Shown here: in pieces, positions 550-36,655 of the stretch
How the letters are laid out: every line of letters begins with the position of its first letter
Position numbering within the stretch: the first letter of the stretch is position 1
Source: Escherichia phage MarieHeimVoegtlin_Bas70
Sequence record: PQ850619.1
Strand: one strand, 5' to 3'
DNA length: 43,265 nucleotides
The notes under the pieces: model-generated
Databases searched by the model: none
What the model was told of the DNA's origin: nothing
The model's input: the letters and a program-made list of their open reading frames with translations, nothing else
Position numbers and translations under genes: made by a program

Positions 550-1810
550 TATCACGGCAACGGAGCCGCAAGGCGCGTTTCTCGGTATGCATTGCAAGTT
601 TCCGGCATTCGTAGCTGGCTTCGGTACGGGTAAATCCGAAGTTATGTGCAACTCTGCACTACTCGACAGCATGGAAGGTGGTAGCGATTCTATCATCGCC
701 ATGTATGAGCCGACTTATGACCTGGTGCGCCTCATCCTTGCACCGCGTATGGAAGAAAAGCTCACCGACTGGGGTATCCGGTACAAATACAACAAGTCTG
801 ACAACATAATCTATACGTCTTCCGGACAATTTGGGGATTTTGTTCTGCGTACACTTGATAATCCAGCACGAATCGTTGGCTACGAATCGTTTCGTGCGAA
901 AATCGACGAGTTGGACACCCTTAACATGGAGCACGCCGAGCACGCGTGGAACAAAGTCATCGCCCGTAACCGCCAGTTGCCGCGGACATATAAACCTATT
1001 ACACCGAAACCTGCTAATACCGTTTCCGTGTTCACTACCCCGGAAGGATTCCGTTTCGTACATGACCGCTGGGTAGTCAAAAAGAATCCAGGCTACGAGA
1101 TGATTCAGGCGTCCACCCTGTCTAACCCGTTCCTGCCAGAAGATTATGTGCAGTCGTTACGCGACACATACCCAGGTCAGTTGATTGACGCCTACATCAA
1201 CGGCGAGTTCGTCAACCTGACGGCGGGGACTGTCTATTACGCCTATGACCGCAGGAAAAACAGCAGCCGCGAAACAATAAAACCAGGCGAGACTCTGTAT
1301 ATCGGGCAGGACTTTAACGTAGGCCACATGGCTAGTACAGTTTACGTGCAACGTGGCAAAGTCTGGCATGCAGTCGCCGAGTTGGTGGATATGTTCGATA
1401 CGCCCGATGTGGTGAGAGCCGTAACAGAGCGCTGGAAAAGTAAGGGCCACTATATCGTTATGTACCCCGACGCAAGCGGTAAAAACCGTAAAAGTAACAA
1501 CGCCAGCACATCTGATATTGCCCAGTTACAGCAGGCCGGCTTCGAAGTGCGCGCTAAATCGACAAACCCACCGGTTAAAGACCGCGTAGCGGCGATGAAT
1601 AAGGCGCTTGAATCTGGTATGGTCATGATTAATGAACAGGCTTGCCCTGTTACCGCACGATGCCTGGAGCAACAGGCTTACGACAAGAACGGCGAACCGG
1701 ATAAATCAGGCGGTGTGGACCACCAGAATGATGGAACCACATACCCTATCGCGTATGAAATGCCGATTCGCAAACCAGTTATTAACGTCCCGGTGACTTT
1801 CGCACTTTAA
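539..1810 (+). CDS. terL: terminase large subunit
   Basis: 423 aa. GTG start with AAGGTGG Shine-Dalgarno 6 nt upstream. Walker A-like GFGTGKS near the N-terminus. Followed directly by the portal gene. Confidence 0.8.
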   Translation: MNVNITATEPQGAFLGMHCKFPAFVAGFGTGKSEVMCNSALLDSMEGGSDSIIAMYEPTYDLVRLILAPRMEEKLTDWGIRYKYNKSDNIIYTSSGQFGDFVLRTLDNPARIVGYESFRAKIDELDTLNMEHAEHAWNKVIARNRQLPRTYKPITPKPANTVSVFTTPEGFRFVHDRWVVKKNPGYEMIQASTLSNPFLPEDYVQSLRDTYPGQLIDAYINGEFVNLTAGTVYYAYDRRKNSSRETIKPGETLYIGQDFNVGHMASTVYVQRGKVWHAVAELVDMFDTPDVVRAVTERWKSKGHYIVMYPDASGKNRKSNNASTSDIAQLQQAGFEVRAKSTNPPVKDRVAAMNKALESGMVMINEQACPVTARCLEQQAYDKNGEPDKSGGVDHQNDGTTYPIAYEMPIRKPVINVPVTFAL

Positions 1811-1822
1811 GAGGATTATTCA

Positions 1823-3304
1823 ATGTTAACTATGAACGGTCAGAATCAGGGTGTTAAGACAAAACACCGGGAATGGCTGCATCACTTCGATAAATGGCAG
1901 AAGGTACGCCACGCTCTTGAAGGCGACCTTATCCGCTATCTGCGCAACGTCGGGAAGAACGAGCCTGACCAGACCTACGCAGCACAGCGACAGGAAGAAT
2001 ACGAGAACGGCGCTATCTGCTACAATTTCACCAAACGCACGCTGGCGGGGATGACGGGGTCAGTGATGCGCAAAGACCCTGAGCAGATTATCCCGCCTGA
2101 ACTTGAGTACCTGTTGCACAACGCTGACGGTTCAGGTGTCGGGCTGTGGCAGCACGCGCAGGATACGCTGATGGAGATTAACTCGATAGGCCGTGGCGGG
2201 TTGCTGGTGGACGCCCCGGAAACAGCCGCAGCAACGGCGGCAGAGCAGAACGCGGGATTATTAAACCCGGTAATCGCATTCTATACCGCGGAGAACATTA
2301 TCAACTGGAGACTCACCCGCATCGGTTCAGTGAACCGCGTGACGATGGTTGTATTGCGTGAGGCATGGGAATACTCGGAACCAGGCGCTGAGTTTGAAAC
2401 AAAATTCGGCGAGCAATACCGCGTCCTTGACCTGATTGACGGTCGCTACCGCCAGCGCATCTACCGCTTCGATGCCGAAGGTGGCGCACAGGATGAAGTA
2501 ATCGAAATCTTCCCGGAACTCGGCGAACAGTTGCGCGGTAAAATCCCGTTCACGTTCATTGGCGCAAGCAACAACGACGCCACTATAGACGATGCGCCTT
2601 TACTGCCGTTAGCTGAGCTAAATATAGGACACTTCAGAAATTCGGCCGATGTGGAAGAGGCCAGCTTTATAGTAGGTCAACCGACACTGTTCATTGCCCC
2701 CGGCGAGAACATGAGCATGGAGCAGTGGAAAGAAGCCAACCCACACGGCATACGCATGGGGTCGCGTTCAGGCCACAACATCGGCTCCGGCGGAAATGCG
2801 TTTCTGGTTCAGGCGGCGGAAACTAACCTCGCCAAACAGAATATGCTGGATAAAGAGAATCAGGCCATCCAGATTGGCGCGCAGCTTATCACCCCGACGC
2901 AGCAAATCACCGCGGAATCGGCCCGCCTGCAACGCGGCGCCGACACGTCAGTCATGGCAACAATAGCACGTAATGTAAGCATGGCGTATACCGATGCGTT
3001 GCGCTGGGTTGCGGGTATGCTTGGGCTTAGTGAAGATACTGAGATTGAGTTCAAGCTGAATATGGAATTCTTCCTGCAACCTATGACAGCTCAGGACCGC
3101 GCTCAGTGGATGGCGGATATTAACGCTGGCCTGCTACCCGCCACCGCTTACTATGCTGCGTTGCGCAAGGCAGGTGTGACTGACTGGACAGATGAGGACA
3201 TTCAGAACGCTATTGAAGACGCACCTCTGCCGTTGGGTTCTGTTGCTCAGGTAGCGGGAGAGATTCCGCAGTCGGCGCAGCAACAGGACACCACTCAGCA
3301 GTAA
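1823..3304 (+). CDS. portal protein
   Basis: 493 aa ORF immediately after terL and before the head morphogenesis gene. Acidic Q-rich C-terminus. Call rests on size and gene order. Confidence 0.75.
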   Translation: MLTMNGQNQGVKTKHREWLHHFDKWQKVRHALEGDLIRYLRNVGKNEPDQTYAAQRQEEYENGAICYNFTKRTLAGMTGSVMRKDPEQIIPPELEYLLHNADGSGVGLWQHAQDTLMEINSIGRGGLLVDAPETAAATAAEQNAGLLNPVIAFYTAENIINWRLTRIGSVNRVTMVVLREAWEYSEPGAEFETKFGEQYRVLDLIDGRYRQRIYRFDAEGGAQDEVIEIFPELGEQLRGKIPFTFIGASNNDATIDDAPLLPLAELNIGHFRNSADVEEASFIVGQPTLFIAPGENMSMEQWKEANPHGIRMGSRSGHNIGSGGNAFLVQAAETNLAKQNMLDKENQAIQIGAQLITPTQQITAESARLQRGADTSVMATIARNVSMAYTDALRWVAGMLGLSEDTEIEFKLNMEFFLQPMTAQDRAQWMADINAGLLPATAYYAALRKAGVTDWTDEDIQNAIEDAPLPLGSVAQVAGEIPQSAQQQDTTQQ

Positions 3305-3314
3305 GTTCACCTAT

Positions 3315-3336
3315 AGCCCCGAAAGGGGCTTTCTTA
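3315..3336 (+). terminator. hairpin with GAAA loop followed by TTCTT
   Basis: agcccc-gaaa-ggggct stem-loop followed by a short T-run, directly after the portal stop. Confidence 0.45.
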
Positions 3337-3373
3337 TAGTATGCTATTAACTTTAGCGCCACAGGGTTGATCT

Positions 3374-4417
3374 ATGAGCTTACTTACATCCCTAATCAGC
3401 CATCAGATATGGCTGCAACGCACCGCATCCGGTGAGGTGAAAGACCTCACGCCGTTCATTCAGGAGATAAGGGATGAAATCAAACGGCAGGTGCTGTTAT
3501 TCGGTGACGACGGTCGCAGCACTGCGCGACTGAATAAACTGTTACGCGACCTGGAAGAAGCACTAACCGGTATTACGGGTGACTGGCAAACAAAGCTAAC
3601 AGACGACCTTAAGGAACTGGCGGCGTACGAGGCTGAGTGGAACGTAAAGACACTGACCGCCAACGTAGACGCGGAATTTGTTACGCCTACCGCTGAGCAG
3701 GTATGGGCCGCTGCCGAGTTTCAACCATTATCATTGAGCGACAAGCCCGTTGATTTCACCAAGCTGATGTCTGGATGGGGCGAAACGGAAGTAGCACGTC
3801 TTGTAACTGGAGTTAAGATGGGCTTTGTGCAAGGTCAAACCACACGGCAGATTGTTAAGAATGTTGTTGGCGCTGGTGGACTAGCCGACATCTCAGAACG
3901 TAACGCGACTACGGTAATCCGCACCGCGCTGTCCCACGTATCCAACGAGGCCCGTAACGAGACGTACCGCCAGAACGACGACATCATCGAGAAGTACGAG
4001 TGGGTGTCAACGCTTGACAGCCGCACCAGTACGATTTGCAGGGTCAGAGACGGGATGACGTGGGAAATTGGTAAGGGGCCGATGCCCCCAGCCCATCCGA
4101 ACTGCCGGTCGTGCACGGCTCCGGTAATCAGTTCCGAGTTCGACTTCCTCGATAAAGGCGCAAAACGCGCGGCTAAAGGCGCGGAAGGTGGCACTCAGGT
4201 AAGCGCAGACACCACTTACTACGAGTTCCTTAAACAACAACCGGCGTGGTTTCAGGACCAGGCGCTCGGCCCGGTGCGAGGTAAGATTTTCCGTAACAGC
4301 GGTATATCGCCGGAAGAGTTTCGCGTAATATCTGTAGATGGTTTCGGGAATCCGCTCACGCTTAAGCAGATGGCGGAACTCGATAAACGTGTTGCTGATT
4401 ATCTGAAAGGGGAATAA
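3374..4417 (+). CDS. head morphogenesis protein (Mu F-like / SPP1 gp7-like minor head protein)
   Basis: 347 aa ORF after the portal gene, the usual position of this family. ATG start. Confidence 0.65.
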   Translation: MSLLTSLISHQIWLQRTASGEVKDLTPFIQEIRDEIKRQVLLFGDDGRSTARLNKLLRDLEEALTGITGDWQTKLTDDLKELAAYEAEWNVKTLTANVDAEFVTPTAEQVWAAAEFQPLSLSDKPVDFTKLMSGWGETEVARLVTGVKMGFVQGQTTRQIVKNVVGAGGLADISERNATTVIRTALSHVSNEARNETYRQNDDIIEKYEWVSTLDSRTSTICRVRDGMTWEIGKGPMPPAHPNCRSCTAPVISSEFDFLDKGAKRAAKGAEGGTQVSADTTYYEFLKQQPAWFQDQALGPVRGKIFRNSGISPEEFRVISVDGFGNPLTLKQMAELDKRVADYLKGE

Positions 4418-4878
4418 TGATGGGCTTTTTCAAAGTAACTGACGTACCGTCTCGTCGCGTAGTCCAGTACGCCCGCGTGTCTGGCTCTGGCGAGAACGTG
4501 GTATTTATTGAGGACGAAAGTGTACTCGGTACACCGGTAGATGATATGCCGTTTGCAGATAAAACCGGTATTGCGTTGCCCGCCGCCGGTATGCTTTATG
4601 AAATTCCGTATCTGGCGGACGCTGGCGACGTGTATTTCTCTGCGCAACCGCAGGACGCTGAACTGGCGGGCGGCAGCGCAACCATCACTGTCGAGGTTAA
4701 GGCAGGCAAAGCGCCGTATTCTCTGACCTGGTACAAAGACGGTAAGGAAGTGGTGAATGCGCCTGAGGAGGCTCTGTCTCTGACGGTTAATGCGGTCGGC
4801 GAATACTTCGTTAAAGTTACTGATGCCGATGGAGTAGAGGCGGTAAGCAAAGCGGCGAAGGTTACTAAGCCAGAATGA
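4417..4878 (+). CDS. Ig-like domain protein (possible capsid decoration or accessory)
   Basis: 153 aa. C-terminal segment KAPYSLTWYKDGKEV...GEYFVKVTDADG matches the Ig-like strand pattern also seen in the 8189-8539 protein. TAATG overlap with the upstream gene. Confidence 0.5.
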   Translation: MMGFFKVTDVPSRRVVQYARVSGSGENVVFIEDESVLGTPVDDMPFADKTGIALPAAGMLYEIPYLADAGDVYFSAQPQDAELAGGSATITVEVKAGKAPYSLTWYKDGKEVVNAPEEALSLTVNAVGEYFVKVTDADGVEAVSKAAKVTKPE

Positions 4879-4883
4879 TAAAA

Positions 4884-4908
4884 GGCCCCATTATGGGGCC
4901 TTAGTTTT
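4884..4908. terminator. bidirectional intrinsic terminator
   Basis: ggcccc-attat-ggggcc hairpin flanked by AAAA on the 5' side and TTAGTTTT on the 3' side. Sits between convergent genes ending at 4878 (+) and 4908 (-). Confidence 0.6.
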
Positions 4909-5111
4909 CAACGGAATCTTGTGTTTAAATCCTGCTCATGGACAACCCTCAGAACAGTGTCATAATCCCCGTATCTTCCAGGTTCAAATATATCTAATGC
5001 CTTGTAAGCAGACATTGCGTCAGGGAAAACCTGCAGAACCTTTTTAACCCGGCACAAGTCACCGTCGAACTCTTCATCGAACTCTTGAACTACTTCGCAA
5101 ATTGCATACAT
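4908..5111 (-). CDS. hypothetical protein (antisense moron in head module)
   Basis: 67 aa. ATG with strong AGGAGGTG Shine-Dalgarno. Own promoter at 5136-5167 and terminator at 4884-4908. Opposite orientation to the surrounding structural genes. Confidence 0.55.
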   Translation of the reverse strand: MYAICEVVQEFDEEFDGDLCRVKKVLQVFPDAMSAYKALDIFEPGRYGDYDTVLRVVHEQDLNTRFR

Positions 5112-5135
5112 TTTTCACCTCCTGTTTAAGTTAAC

Positions 5136-5167
5136 TGAATAGTACCCTATTATATTGGGGTGTGCAA
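5136..5167 (-). promoter_or_regulatory. sigma70-like promoter (TTGCAC-N17-TACTAT) with embedded AATAG-N4-CTATT palindrome
   Basis: Read on the minus strand: TTGCAC, 17-nt spacer accccaatataataggg, TACTAT. The 32-bp block is identical to 14240-14271. Confidence 0.55.
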
Positions 5168-5442
5168 ACTATTTATTTACGTATTCCAGTTATTCCTCCG
5201 AATTGTAAATGTTGGAATAAACTATTCGAATAGTTGACTTTTCACTAAAAATATGATAAGCTCCACCTGAGCTTGTGAAGTATGAACAAGCGACCGCGGC
5301 GCGGGCAGGTAACGGAGCGGGACGTAAGTCCTGAGTGTAGTTACGCTGACGCGTTCGGAAGGGCCATACTCTATTGCTTGTGTAAAAAGTAACTGGTTTA
5401 CTGAGATTACGCCGTTTCTATGTTTAAATGATAAGGACTAGC

Positions 5443-5469
5443 GCCCCGCTTTATGGCGGGGCTTTACTT
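5443..5469 (+). terminator. hairpin, weak terminator or attenuator
   Basis: gccccgc-tttatg-gcggggc perfect 7-bp stem followed by TTTACTT, just upstream of the spanin gene Shine-Dalgarno. Confidence 0.35.
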
Positions 5470-5486
5470 ATCGAGAAAGGGGAAAC

Positions 5487-5873
5487 ATGAATCTTAAAGC
5501 AACTGTCGTAGCAGGAGCATGTTTCATCATCCTGGTTTACGCACACGGCATCTACCAGTATCGCAGCGGATGGAACGAAGGCCGGGCTAATCTCGTTTCG
5601 CAGCAACAGCAGAAAGCACAGGCTGAGTTAGCGAAGAAAACACAACGGCAGCAGCAGGATGAATCGAAGGCCGCCGCCGCTGACAACGAAGGCAAGACGA
5701 AATCAGAGGTGATTACCCGTGAAGTCGTTAAGTACATTAAAACGCCTGGTCGCAGTGTGTGCGCTTTTGACCCTGAGCGCGTGCAGCTCAAGTCCCGCGC
5801 CGTCGCAAACGCCAACTCCATCCCCGGATACGACGATGATGCAGCCGCCGTGCAAACTGGCACCGCCAAGTAG
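5487..5873 (+). CDS. i-spanin (Rz-like inner membrane spanin)
   Basis: 128 aa. N-terminal transmembrane segment ATVVAGACFIILVYAHGIY. Then a Q/K/E-rich predicted coiled-coil periplasmic region. An overlapping +1-frame lipoprotein gene follows. Confidence 0.6.
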   Translation: MNLKATVVAGACFIILVYAHGIYQYRSGWNEGRANLVSQQQQKAQAELAKKTQRQQQDESKAAAADNEGKTKSEVITREVVKYIKTPGRSVCAFDPERVQLKSRAVANANSIPGYDDDAAAVQTGTAK

Positions 5874-5982
5874 CGACGCCGACGAGGATTTGGCTATCGA
5901 CGTTCAGAACGCTGAATGTGTACGGCAACTGAGGCTGAAAGTGTTTATGTTGCAGGATTACGTGAGGAATATTCTGGAATAG
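5719..5982 (+). CDS. o-spanin (Rz1-like outer membrane lipoprotein)
   Basis: 87 aa. GTG start with AGAGGTGA Shine-Dalgarno. Signal peptide ending in lipobox LSAC. Proline-rich mature region SSSPAPSQTPTPSP. Starts inside the i-spanin gene in another frame and extends past its stop. Confidence 0.55.
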   Translation: MKSLSTLKRLVAVCALLTLSACSSSPAPSQTPTPSPDTTMMQPPCKLAPPSSDADEDLAIDVQNAECVRQLRLKVFMLQDYVRNILE

Positions 5983-12466: not shown

Positions 12467-12695
12467 ACTCATCAATATTACTTCGATACTCCCGTAACTT
12501 CTCCAGACTTTCAATTGCTTCTGCTAAGTCGGTTCCGGTGTCCTTATGCCCGCGAAGACCCATGCACAATAACTTCTTCAATGCGTGCTGTAGTGCGGGG
12601 TCACGGATGTCGAAGGCACGGAGAACATCGTAAACGTCTACGGTCATAGTGCTGCCGTGAGTGTTTGTCATTGTTCGGTTGTATTTTGAAGTCAT
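12465..12695 (-). CDS. hypothetical protein (76 aa), cassette member
   Basis: ATGA overlap with the upstream phosphoesterase gene, so likely co-translated. Last gene before the terminator. Confidence 0.5.
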   Translation of the reverse strand: MTSKYNRTMTNTHGSTMTVDVYDVLRAFDIRDPALQHALKKLLCMGLRGHKDTGTDLAEAIESLEKLREYRSNIDE

Positions 12696-13822
12696 CCCAG
12701 CATCTCCGGTGAAATAGTTAAACGTGCGACCTCGCCATATTCGGCGCTATAAGTAATTACATTTGCACTACGGCCTGACATCCACCCGCCGCGGGAGGCA
12801 TAGGCGTCTTTAGCCGCTAAGGTGCGGTGTTGCTCAACAATCATGTTACGGCTTTCTACAATCTTCTGGTGGTGCAGGTGGCCTACGTGGGCGTAGCTAT
12901 AGACACTCTCACCGAACGCTTTGCGGAATTTGGCAATCATAACCGGTTCGATAGCATCGAATCGCGCCTTATGCCCGTGGTGAAAGAACAACGTCGTTTT
13001 TCCGTGTTGCACCATCTTGTAAACATCCGGCGACGTATCGACAATCACTCGGCTGTCGTTCGAATATAAAACTGTGAACATTTCAGCCAGCCATACAGAG
13101 CCTACAGGGTCATGGTTCCCCTGTACGATAAGCAAGCGAACATTTTTATGTTTAACCAGTGCCATATCTACAACACGGCGTACCATACGAATCATGTAGC
13201 GGACGAGTTTCTGGTAGCGAGTGTCTGCGTCCAACACGTGACGCGACTCAGGTGTAACGGCATCCAGACTATCGAAGTGCGCGAAATCACCCAGCAGGTT
13301 AATAACTCCTGTTCCTGCATCCGGTGCTTTCTGAAACGCCGCGTCGAACCAACGAGAGAACAGGTCTTCCGCAATCTTTATATCCCAGTCGTCGCCGCTC
13401 TCGTCGGCCCAGGCAAGCATACCGAGATGGAAATCAGATACCGTGTAAAGATTGAGTAGCTTGTCGTCGCGTTTGGCTCGAGTCGCTTTAGCCGGCGCAA
13501 CTGGCGTAATCTCTGACTTCATGCCTTCAATCACGGCTTTCATCAACTCGACCTGACGTTCAGCGTCGGTGTCTGTCTTAACCCATTGCAACTTAGTATT
13601 GCCGAACTCGTCTACCAGAGACGACGTCCCTTTAATCTTGTAGCCGTCTGGGACAAGGTGGCTAACGTCACGCCCGTGGCCTACACCTTTCTTAGCCAGC
13701 TTCGCTTTACGGATACGAATAACTCGGTCTGAGATGCCGTATTTACGGGCGATGTCTACATTCTTCATCCCGGCGTTCAATTCTTCCTGTAACTGTTCGT
13801 CGGTTATTTTCTTCTGGGCCAT
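12692..13822 (-). CDS. HTH domain-calcineurin-like metallophosphoesterase fusion
   Basis: 376 aa. N-terminal helix-turn-helix NVDIARKYGISDRVIRIRKAK. Then ordered metallophosphoesterase motifs: SDFH (DxH), LLGDFAHFD (GDxxD-like), QGNHD (GNHD/E), HHGH, VGHLHH (GHxH). Encoded antisense to the tail genes. Confidence 0.7.
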   Translation of the reverse strand: MAQKKITDEQLQEELNAGMKNVDIARKYGISDRVIRIRKAKLAKKGVGHGRDVSHLVPDGYKIKGTSSLVDEFGNTKLQWVKTDTDAERQVELMKAVIEGMKSEITPVAPAKATRAKRDDKLLNLYTVSDFHLGMLAWADESGDDWDIKIAEDLFSRWFDAAFQKAPDAGTGVINLLGDFAHFDSLDAVTPESRHVLDADTRYQKLVRYMIRMVRRVVDMALVKHKNVRLLIVQGNHDPVGSVWLAEMFTVLYSNDSRVIVDTSPDVYKMVQHGKTTLFFHHGHKARFDAIEPVMIAKFRKAFGESVYSYAHVGHLHHQKIVESRNMIVEQHRTLAAKDAYASRGGWMSGRSANVITYSAEYGEVARLTISPEMLG

Positions 13823-13887
13823 GCTTACTTCCTCGTGTTTAGGATTTGTCCTATTTAACCACAGTGGATTCCTTTAAATAAAGGCAA

Positions 13888-14214
13888 CTATTTACTTTCT
13901 GCGCCTATCGCCCACCCTGTCATTACCATTTGCAGACGGGTGGCTGTCAGTAGGCTATAGAAAGCATCTCCGTTTTTCTCTACCGAACGTATCACTGTGT
14001 AGGTTACGGCCTGCGGGGGTAGGCCCGATTTACCAACCTCCACGGCGGCCTCACACTCGCGAACTGTAGAGTCCTTGAACGCCTTTACAATAGTAGGGTC
14101 GGCTTTATCAAGCACACCAGAAGTCATAAGAACAGATTCACTAAATACCTGTTCGCACGGGGCTCCAAAAGTAGCAAAAGACATAAAACCCAGAGCTAGT
14201 ACTAATTTACGCAT
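13888..14214 (-). CDS. small secreted/periplasmic protein (108 aa)
   Basis: N-terminal signal-peptide-like MRKLVLALGFMSFATFGA. GAGGAA Shine-Dalgarno. Own promoter at 14240-14271. Confidence 0.55.
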   Translation of the reverse strand: MRKLVLALGFMSFATFGAPCEQVFSESVLMTSGVLDKADPTIVKAFKDSTVRECEAAVEVGKSGLPPQAVTYTVIRSVEKNGDAFYSLLTATRLQMVMTGWAIGAESK

Positions 14215-14239
14215 AATTATTTCCTCAGTAAGTTACATG

Positions 14240-14271
14240 TGAATAGTACCCTATTATATTGGGGTGTGCAA
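14240..14271 (-). promoter_or_regulatory. sigma70-like promoter (TTGCAC-N17-TACTAT) with embedded AATAG-N4-CTATT palindrome
   Basis: 32 bp identical to 5136-5167. Positioned about 25 nt upstream of the 13888-14214 start codon on the minus strand. Confidence 0.55.
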
Positions 14272-32949: not shown

Positions 32950-32978
32950 ACTATAATAGCGAACTATTCACATGTCAA
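32950..32978 (-). promoter_or_regulatory. sigma70-like promoter (TTGACA-N17-TATAGT) with AATAGCGAACTATT palindrome
   Basis: Minus-strand reading gives TTGACA, 17-nt spacer, TATAGT. Divergent from the HTH regulator gene at 33043. Confidence 0.6.
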
Positions 32979-33042: not shown

Positions 33043-33258
33043 ATGCAACCATCTGAACTAGGTATCCGTGTAGAACAACGCCGTAAAGAACTCGGCATCT
33101 CCCAGCGCCGTTTGGCGGCCCTGACCGGCGTTTCCCAGGGCGCGATTAACCAACTGGCACTTGGAGTAACTCAGGACGTCCGCCCGGCAACGCTGTTCAA
33201 ACTGGCGGAAGTTCTGGAAGTAGACGCCAAGTGGCTGGCGTTAGGTGAAGGGGCTTAA
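33043..33258 (+). CDS. XRE-family HTH transcriptional regulator (Cro/CI-like)
   Basis: 71 aa. Classic HTH ISQRRLAALTGVSQGAINQL. AAGGAG Shine-Dalgarno. Sits in a divergent promoter region carrying the repeated palindrome. Confidence 0.7.
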   Translation: MQPSELGIRVEQRRKELGISQRRLAALTGVSQGAINQLALGVTQDVRPATLFKLAEVLEVDAKWLALGEGA

Positions 33259-36271: not shown

Positions 36272-36301
36272 TTGAAAGTTCTTGACACATGTTTGTATAA
36301 T
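36272..36301 (+). promoter_or_regulatory. sigma70-like promoter (TTGAAA-N18-TATAAT)
   Basis: TTGAAA at 36272-36277, 18-nt spacer, TATAAT at 36296-36301. Rightward, divergent from the HTH gene promoter. Confidence 0.5.
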
Positions 36302-36307
36302 GGTTTT

Positions 36308-36527
36308 GGGACTTGTATATATTACGGAGTTGACGAACCCTCCCCGAGGGATTCGTCAACCCCTCCCAGACAGCTGAGATGCTTGCCTTGTGGTTTAAGG
36401 ATAAGTGTATCTAAATCTCATTTAAAGAAGTAACCCGCTGAAATATCTACTGTTTCTTAATGTGCCGTAGATTCGCAACCGTAAAAATGTAACGATTATT
36501 GGGCAGGCTTAAGCCTGCCCTTTAGTT
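36308..36527 (+). ncRNA. candidate small noncoding RNA or structured leader
   Basis: Bounded by the promoter at 36272-36301 and a hairpin terminator at 36501-36527. No ORF longer than about 11 codons. Strong 5' hairpin at 36329-36360 (9-bp plus 5-bp stem). Confidence 0.25.
36501..36527 (+). terminator. intrinsic terminator
   Basis: gggcaggc-ttaa-gcctgccc perfect 8-bp stem followed by TTTAGTT. Confidence 0.5.
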
Positions 36528-36592: not shown

Positions 36593-36621
36593 TTGCACAC
36601 CCCAACATAATAGGTTACTAT
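36593..36621 (+). promoter_or_regulatory. sigma70-like promoter (TTGCAC-N17-TACTAT) with AATAG-N4-CTATT palindrome
   Basis: Reverse-orientation copy of the 5136/14240 promoter block with two mismatches. About 35 nt upstream of the gene at 36656. Confidence 0.55.
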
Positions 36622-36655
36622 TCACTTATCGAAACGAGACATAAGGAATTTAGAA

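Follow-up and report, generated by a model that had tools for sequence, protein, structure and literature searches.

Why should a phage carry, within a head module whose genes all run in one direction, a single small ORF that runs the other way? The locus that raises this question lies in Escherichia phage MarieHeimVoegtlin_Bas70 (sequence record PQ850619.1); the whole stretch of 43,265 nt that was analysed is called the window below. All genes around the 67-aa ORF, from terminase to major capsid, are on the + strand, and the local order is terminase, portal, Mu F-like, Hoc-like, 67-aa cassette, Rz-like spanin, scaffold and major capsid (Table 1). An earlier note, made from the sequence alone, had described the ORF as an antisense moron of the kind that modifies host physiology or excludes other phages. 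Its antisense placement is readily confirmed: the Hoc-like gene, which follows the Mu F-like gene, and the spanin gene flank it, and both are on the + strand.

The window belongs to a Kagunavirus (Guernseyvirinae) and is about 99% identical to the BASEL phages Bas71-76. A megablast search with positions 4400-5900 matched 300 phage records, the top matches being Escherichia phages 590B, NTEC3, KMB35 and Bas71-76, at 97-99.5% identity over the full query. Because no integrase is annotated in Bas74, we call the phage virulent. The cassette is, in our view, an ordinary but cleanly documented phage moron, and its gene is already annotated as hypothetical in GenBank, the counterpart in Bas74 being hypothetical protein Bas74_0006.

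Table 1. Coordinates of features in the window discussed in the text.
Feature	Position	Strand	Remarks
Mu F-like head morphogenesis gene	3374-4417	+	
Hoc-like head-decoration gene	4417-4878	+	directly after Mu F-like gene
Whole accessory cassette	4879-5181	-	terminator, ORF, RBS and promoter; absent from empty-slot relatives
Hairpin terminator	4882-4902	both	common to convergent head operon (+) and 67-aa gene (-)
Gene for 67-aa protein, PHROG 27256	4908-5111	-	ATG start; from ORF listing and translation
Shine-Dalgarno site AGGAGGTG	5116-5123	-	4 nt before ATG (5111-5109)
Cassette promoter (putative)	5136-5167	-	-35 TTGCAC 5162-5167, 17-nt spacer, -10 TACTAT 5139-5144
Dyad AATAG-N4-CTATT, putative operator	5138-5151		overlaps -10 of cassette promoter
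Perfect dyads AATAG-N4-CTATT	5138, 14242, 26845, 30406, 32955, 36609, 38239		
One-mismatch dyads	3335, 32999		also with promoter core
71-aa DicA/Cro-like HTH gene	33043-33258	+	two dyads upstream
Candidate structured RNA gene	5220-5470	+	promoter, near-invariant stretch of about 200 nt, terminator, covariation; predicted RNA at 5269-5470
RNA-gene promoter (putative)	5234-5262	+	TTGACT 5234-5239, 17-nt spacer containing TGN, TAAGCT 5257-5262
RNA-gene terminator hairpin	5443-5462	+	24 nt before spanin ATG
Rz-like spanin gene	5487-5873	+	

Coding status and predicted product of the 67-aa ORF

The ATG-initiated ORF is present as the earlier note had claimed, and its translation reads MYAICEVVQEFDEEFDGDLCRVKKVLQVFPDAMSAYKALDIFEPGRYGDYDTVLRVVHEQDLNTRFR. 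By tblastn, homologues with 44-100% identity were found in 32 records of phages of Escherichia, Salmonella and Klebsiella. Among E. coli Kagunavirus records, 18 reach 98.5-100% identity and one further has 84%; the Salmonella phage records VSt10, vB_St_LL_sp9 and S.Ent 1-35-3 are at 62-67%, and Klebsiella Jedunavirus and other phages, together with the Salmonella Cornellvirus Shemara, are at 44-58%. Among plasmids, tblastn returned zero homologues. Profile searches gave 22 family clusters among 1.8 billion representative proteins and, in a second, broader set of 5.8 billion proteins, 40 clusters, none of them named. The matches in both searches were unannotated small phage proteins only. Three profile hits (P0028, P0036 and P0038) are repetitive proteins and were discarded as false positives.

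In a codon-level comparison of nine homologues, synonymous differences were saturated (pS 0.73-1.0) and pN was 0.11-0.45. The family alignment has a nearly invariant hydrophobic pattern and five invariant residues, D16, V22, A35, F66 and R67, the last two forming a C-terminal Phe-Arg. On this comparative evidence we take the ORF to be a protein-coding gene under purifying selection. The earlier note had said that its reading would fall if the ORF were not conserved even in the closest relatives; the homologues in Escherichia, Salmonella and Klebsiella phages, with their signature of purifying selection, show the opposite.

The protein has a mass of 7.9 kDa, a pI of 4.5, a net charge of about -6 (-6.4) and a GRAVY value of -0.31, and the acidity is family-wide (pI 4.2-5.0 across homologues). 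Sequence analysis found neither a signal peptide, nor a hydrophobic stretch, nor a membrane segment. The AlphaFold2 model is compact and confident (pLDDT 89.9), with a beta hairpin (residues 2-29), two helices (32-41, 44-47) and a further strand (53-58). We infer from the model that the product is a soluble, acidic, compact alpha/beta protein.

The absence of a recognisable motif, which had been apparent by eye, held up in searches of Pfam, NCBIfam and PADLOC, which gave zero matches; the sole match was to PHROG 27256. Residues 2-67 align with positions 4-65 of the 65-position profile (E = 4e-4), and 21 of the 22 family members match the same PHROG, with a best E-value of 8.5e-21. Because PHROG 27256 is without functional annotation, this membership is uninformative on mechanism. 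The homology searches that the earlier note had proposed thus returned relatives within PHROG 27256 and, when the AlphaFold2 model was compared with solved structures in the PDB, no convincing match. Two candidate kinships, with T7 Gp2 and with the ClpS or ClpS-like adaptor fold (E. coli ClpS), were dropped after hhalign gave a probability below 1% for each.

An accessory slot between the Hoc-like and spanin genes

We fetched 48 spanin-encoding IMG/VR loci and located the Hoc-like gene as well in 46 of them, which together with the window gives 47 slots. The interval is empty in 19, with a gap of 317-343 nt, and filled in 28 (27 loci and the window) by cargo on the - strand, with a gap of 507-1117 nt; the gap in the window is 608 nt. 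All ten Jerseyvirus-like loci, whose Hoc-like and spanin proteins are only about 65% identical to those of the window, are among the empty ones. In three empty loci (L023, L045 and L053) the Hoc-like stop and terminator are followed almost at once by TTATTCCAGTTATTCC, which matches the window from about position 5182. A regular expression for the cassette promoter matched 24 of the 28 filled slots and 0 of the 19 empty ones.

About 12 different cargos occupy the 28 filled slots, and the 67-aa family accounts for four of the 47 (the window and three loci). The small cargos include a 33-aa membrane peptide and a 114-aa lipoprotein; in L025, L022 and L030 the cargo is a lipoprotein with an LSGC lipobox or a small membrane peptide. 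There are unrelated ORFs of 57, 81, 83/101, 94, 106 and 70/75 aa, and eight loci carry a 173-aa beta-clamp-like protein (PHROG 3007). A DNA methyltransferase (242 aa) and an endonuclease VII/HNH protein (179 aa) also occur, and in GenBank relatives the slot further holds a 63-aa ORF or a Dam-type methylase. The 173-aa protein (for example at 1507-2028 (-) in L003) is the commonest slot cargo. It is variously labelled "DNA polymerase III sliding clamp" and "RusA-like resolvase", its match to the beta-clamp central domain is weak, and it is probably neither.

The cassette also differs in composition from its surroundings, at 40.9% G+C versus 53-55% in the flanking genes; the ORF itself, at 43.1%, falls in the lowest 6% of 204-nt windows. 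A homologous promoter-ORF-terminator unit lies in the portal/Mu F gap of the Jerseyvirus Salmonella phage VSt10, with the promoter TTGCTT-17-TACTAT and its dyad, and with a terminator hairpin nearly identical to that of the window. Since the VSt10 unit has the same type of promoter and almost the same hairpin in a different slot, the cassette seems to move as a whole.

By virtue of the slot survey, its own predicted promoter and terminator, and its A+T-rich composition, the cassette qualifies as a moron by a sequence-level definition, and we hold with high confidence both that the gene is real and that its architecture is that of a moron. The description of a self-contained insert has therefore stood up well, given the 19 empty slots among 47, the dozen or so alternative cargos, the promoter seen only with cargo, and the G+C content of 41% against 53-55%. 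Expression from a prophage, a further criterion for morons, does not apply here because the phage is virulent. The comparisons support a horizontally exchanged, monocistronic accessory unit in a hypervariable slot of a virulent Kagunavirus. All of Bas71-76 carry the gene, as do about 19 of the E. coli Kagunavirus records (approximately 113), and its presence in a minority both of these records and of the slots suggests that it is dispensable.

The usefulness of the locus comes from its context: a single standard set of promoter, RBS and terminator serves some dozen alternative cargos. The phages Bas71-76 are simple to work with and can be propagated on E. coli K-12 derivatives in which the O16 O-antigen has been restored, Bas74-76 only on a host cured of cryptic prophages. 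A slot with many cargos in easily handled phages gives convenient access to a collection of candidate host-interaction genes that is open to genetic work, and the Hoc-like/spanin interval is a natural site for engineering payloads into Kagunaviruses.

Two other places in the window have a similar look. In the portal/Mu F gap, at 3305-3373, a degenerate promoter core (AATAGCATACTAT, - strand) runs into a hairpin (AAAGCCCCTTTCGGGGCT), and the whole looks like an emptied cassette; in relatives the same gap holds the 67-aa family (VSt10) or the 173-aa clamp-like gene (SHAK7693). A second antisense island, in the tail module (12692-14271, - strand), is headed by an exact copy of the 32-nt promoter motif described below. 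It encodes a 376-aa DNA-repair exonuclease and a 108-aa protein (PHROG 14165, without known function) whose N-terminus, MRKLVLALGF, resembles a signal peptide. The corresponding island of Bas74 holds different small genes, among them one annotated "superinfection immunity protein".

Expression signals of the cassette

The ribosome-binding site is strong, as the earlier note had said: the + strand reads CACCTCCT, that is, AGGAGGTG on the - strand, 4 nt from the start codon. In XY2 and SHAK7693, unrelated cargos lie behind the same 5' leader and RBS as in the window. K1H keeps the leader with a close RBS variant that has a CTCC core, and in EM1 the RBS stretch differs.

A generic sigma-70 scan produced only a weak hit, nothing convincing, at the cassette promoter, and the -35 element (TTGCAC) matches the consensus at three of six positions. 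The case for a promoter comes from recurrence. Self-comparison showed that the 32-nt motif TTGCACACCCCAATATAATAGGGTACTATTCA is duplicated exactly at 14240-14271 (-) and, with 2 mismatches, at 36593-36624 (+), where zero chance matches are expected; looser copies of its core, AATAGGNTACTAT, occur at 3336, 26846, 32955, 32999 and 38239. An RBS and ATG follow roughly 15-30 nt downstream at seven of the eight sites, the exception being the copy at 3336, which leads straight into a terminator hairpin. In most copies TACTAT is preceded, at a distance of 17 nt, by a -35 element that is of the TTGC type or reads TTGACG; at 32955 and 32999 a -35 element is not obvious. The genes behind the other copies include the DNA-repair exonuclease, the small-ORF cluster at 36.6 kb and the DicA-like HTH gene. 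The promoter that had been attributed to the ORF is thus best described as a recurring TTGCAC-17-TACTAT element, predicted from its repetition and found only with cargo-filled slots. The same motif (on the other strand, tgAATAGTa-ccTATTat-T) has been reported as seven "phage promoters" in Kagunavirus fBC-Eco01 (PMC9825357). It could alternatively act as an operator only, or serve a modified polymerase at another stage of infection.

Overlapping the -10 element is a perfect dyad, AATAG-N4-CTATT, which occurs seven times in the window versus about one expected, with conserved arms and a variable centre. Two of the copies (26846 and 30406) fall in the replication module. Two dyads precede the 71-aa HTH gene, as would be expected if they were the operators through which a repressor controls its own gene, and the HTH protein is, judging by this arrangement, the likely regulator of the dyad-bearing promoters. 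The set as a whole looks like the early-promoter/operator regulon of the phage.

Downstream of the ORF, AAGGCCCCATTATGGGGCCTT forms a 9-bp G+C-rich hairpin whose folding energy is -16.3 kcal/mol whichever strand is folded (z about -3). On the - strand the hairpin leads into UUUUAUCAUU, on the + strand into (UU)AGUUUUC. The U-rich tail is clearer on the - strand, and our scan scored that version alone as terminator-like. The earlier note had called the element a bidirectional terminator; the - strand half of that claim stands, with hairpin and U-rich tail, whereas termination on the + strand is plausible but weaker.

These signals also bear on whether the ORF matters at all. Conceivably the ORF is non-functional and it is the antisense transcript, or the promoter/terminator pair, that counts, for instance by insulating or modulating transcription of the head operon. 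The cassette is indeed convergent with that operon and has a terminator in common with it, and the promoter-like remnant with its terminator at 3305-3373 is without an ORF. Against this, amino acids are conserved while synonymous sites are saturated, the protein recurs in quite different contexts and orientations, its AlphaFold2 model is confident, and 19 related phages live without any cassette. We regard a non-coding role as very improbable.

Contexts of the homologues and candidate functions

The neighbourhoods of the homologues are varied. The gene is antisense between the portal and Mu F genes in Klebsiella Jedunavirus Geezett, antisense next to the portal gene in contig L016, and within antisense islands of the head or neck module in contigs L073/L074 and L071. 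In L015, L018 and L019 it is co-directional and directly follows DNA polymerase A, the next gene being an endonuclease (phrog_93) or a SNF2 helicase. In vB_Kpn2-P2 and L017 its neighbours are a weakly Acb1-like 2H-phosphoesterase on one side and an ORF of 172-175 aa on the other, and in vB_Kpn2-P2 the primase gene follows this region. It is found inside a long small-ORF array that includes KilR in L069/L070, and it comes first in a small-ORF cluster after the endolysin gene in Salmonella phage Shemara.

No conserved partner gene was found among the ORFs downstream of the homologues, and the candidates, ORFs of 167-175 aa (Geezett, Kpn2-P2, L017) and of 112-115 aa (L015, L018, L019), are unrelated to each other. 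One metagenomic protein (P0026) is a fusion of a homologue to DUF905, which we set aside as a functional clue because DUF905 is itself uncharacterised. As we read these neighbourhoods, their common thread is early or replication-time genes or accessory islands, and the gene stands alone. With different neighbours in each context, guilt by association has little force.

The timing of expression can be judged with somewhat more assurance. The positions of homologues after DNA polymerase A, before primase, and in early-type small-ORF arrays near KilR point to early or replication-time expression, and on balance we think early expression of the 67-aa gene probable. Host sigma-70 RNA polymerase would fire the cassette promoter early, alongside the other promoters of the same type. 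After DNA entry, transcription would start near 5132, about 7 nt past TACTAT, and yield a monocistronic RNA of about 250 nt ending at the 4882-4902 hairpin, which would also stop convergent transcripts of the head operon. The strong Shine-Dalgarno site would ensure efficient translation of the 67-aa protein. The Cro/DicA-like HTH protein (33043-33258) would bind the dyad at the -10 element and later shut this class of promoters off.

Once made, the protein may act stoichiometrically, binding and blocking a host protein that is conserved among Enterobacteriaceae; the target would be a component of a defence system or one of DNA metabolism or host takeover. A conditional advantage gained from such a block fits the presence of the gene in a minority of relatives. 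Inhibition of a host protein, for counter-defence or takeover, is a tentative reading that we put somewhat below even chances. The three-part explanation taken as a whole – a real gene in a moron, early expression, and inhibition of a host protein – has, as a compromise, about an even chance of being correct. The BASEL Kagunavirus isolates Bas70-76 are reported to be highly sensitive to restriction-modification (RM) systems and variably sensitive to Old (PMC11990801). Since Bas71-76 carry the gene and are RM-sensitive nonetheless, the 67-aa protein is probably not a broad anti-restriction factor. The family is absent from the supplementary tables of the accessory-gene screens of Silas et al. 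(bioRxiv 10.1101/2023.04.06.535777; Nat Commun 2025, PMC12373910).

The homologues in replication operons lend themselves to another interpretation, namely that the protein assists phage DNA replication or recombination or protects DNA ends, for instance as an inhibitor of RecBCD or another nuclease, and has no general counter-defence role. The position of the homologues may be compared with that of T7 gp5.9 after the DNA polymerase gene, and P2 Old probably responds to a loss of RecBCD function. Three independent contigs have the homologue between DNA polymerase A and the phrog_93 endonuclease or SNF2 helicase, vB_Kpn2-P2 has it just upstream of primase, and the promoter dyad recurs in the replication module (26846, 30406); the small size and acidity of the protein and the variable Old sensitivity of Kagunaviruses (PMC11990801) are in keeping with such a role. 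However, most relatives with the same replication module are without the 67-aa gene, the gene also occurs far from replication genes in head-module islands and early small-ORF arrays, and the protein has no similarity to known nuclease inhibitors. We consider this function unlikely.

Superinfection exclusion or inter-phage competition, in which the protein would protect the infected cell, was among the roles suggested by the earlier note, and morons classically often mediate the exclusion of other phages. In L025, L022 and L030 this slot does hold small membrane peptides or a lipoprotein whose lipobox reads LSGC, and the other antisense island has a gene annotated "superinfection immunity protein" in Bas74. 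The 67-aa protein, however, has no signal peptide or hydrophobic segment, a GRAVY of -0.31 and a charge of -6; a soluble, acidic protein of this kind makes membrane-type (envelope-level) exclusion unlikely. Moreover, a virulent phage has no lysogen to protect, and homologues also lie inside replication operons. We judge exclusion to be quite improbable. Counter-defence or takeover therefore likely ranks first among the candidate functions, followed by replication or DNA-end protection and then by phage exclusion.

A bolder form of the host-inhibition reading, which is doubtful and which we offer as speculation, is that PHROG 27256 is a new family of early inhibitors with a fold so far missing from solved structures, in which the acidic surface and the invariant Phe-Arg terminus block a defence or DNA-end-processing protein that Enterobacteriaceae have in common, the slot with its standard promoter and operator acting as an "expression socket". 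If this were true, the dozen or so cargos of the slot would be a ready-made catalogue of counter-defence candidates.

Comparison with known systems

The moron concept reportedly goes back to Juhala, Hendrix and colleagues and to lambdoid and other tailed phages. Like those morons, the cassette is an additional transcription unit, complete with promoter and terminator, at a point where relatives have two adjoining genes; it deviates in composition from the backbone, it sits in a structural operon, and its content varies among close relatives. Unlike the classical cases, it has a virulent carrier, so that neither lysogenic conversion nor expression from a repressed prophage comes into play, and its putative promoter is not foreign: it is the recurring promoter/operator of the phage itself and would drive about 12 alternative cargos.

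A close parallel to the slot is the phage "accessory regions" that served Silas et al. (PMC12373910) in the search for counter-defence genes, likewise hypervariable slots between conserved genes with small, fast-evolving cargos. The cargos of the present slot include DNA methyltransferases, which are plausible anti-restriction genes. The 67-aa family is missing from the tables of Silas et al., and counter-defence is here only a candidate function.

At the level of the protein, the size range (about 50-120 aa), acidity, accessory distribution and likely early expression resemble those of small acidic proteins with which phages inhibit host proteins, such as T7 Gp2, T7 Gp5.9, Ocr and the anti-CRISPRs AcrIC8 and AcrIF9. 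The secondary-structure order of T7 Gp2 resembles the beta hairpin, helix and strand of the 67-aa protein, but hhalign found no profile homology between the two. The protein differs from the anti-restriction DNA mimics Ocr and ArdA in having no Pfam or PDB match and in belonging to phages (Bas70-76) that are reported as RM-sensitive (PMC11990801), and from the envelope exclusion proteins Imm, Sie, Cor and Llp in having no signal peptide, lipobox or transmembrane segment.

A candidate RNA gene beside the cassette

We also wish to draw attention to the interval between the cassette and the spanin gene, as the RNA gene predicted there may be more interesting than the 67-aa cassette itself. A perfect 16-bp palindrome (AACTATTCGAATAGTT, 5220-5235) abuts a + strand promoter, and the next 200 nt or so are almost invariant among Kagunaviruses, the flanking genes being only about 93% identical. 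In one alignment with diverged Jerseyvirus copies, 9 of 33 predicted pairs show compensatory double changes; in an alignment of the core RNA (Kagunavirus, Jerseyvirus and a paralogous copy) compensatory changes affect 9 of 20 pairs. The G-U pairs fit the + strand only. Rfam has no family at its gathering thresholds in the window, and only chance-level hits in 4850-5550. We do not regard the 36-aa ORF annotated here in Bas74 (5281-5391) as coding, since it is not conserved: Jerseyvirus copies of the RNA have lost the region of its start.

Three IMG/VR Kagunavirus contigs (L119 at 4076-4530, L085 and L090) hold a second, diverged copy with the same promoter, compensated helices and a terminator of its own (GGTGCCTTCGGCACC). 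Immediately downstream of this paralogue comes the early promoter equivalent to the one at 36593 in the window, which heads the + strand small-ORF cluster. A separate paralogue with its own promoter and terminator makes the RNA look like a gene in its own right and not just a leader of the spanin operon. From its structure and position, the RNA could be a stand-alone sRNA or an antitermination leader of the late operon (of the lambda PR'/6S or put type). A literature search found no transcriptome or ncRNA work on Guernseyvirinae, and the structured RNA and the AATAG-N4-CTATT operator are leads to transcription control in this little-studied subfamily.

Two further elements were observed. Where the paralogue would lie in the window there is a different unit (36273-36521, + strand), consisting of a TTGAAA-18-TATAAT promoter, about 220 nt and the terminator GGGCAGGCTTAAGCCTGCCC; it is unrelated to the paralogue, has no convincing ORF and is, by its signals, a second candidate small RNA. 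The inverted repeat TTATTCC-N17-GGAATAA (5190-5220), which precedes the RNA promoter beside the cassette, is kept even in the empty slots of Jerseyvirus and may be a binding site for a regulator of that promoter.
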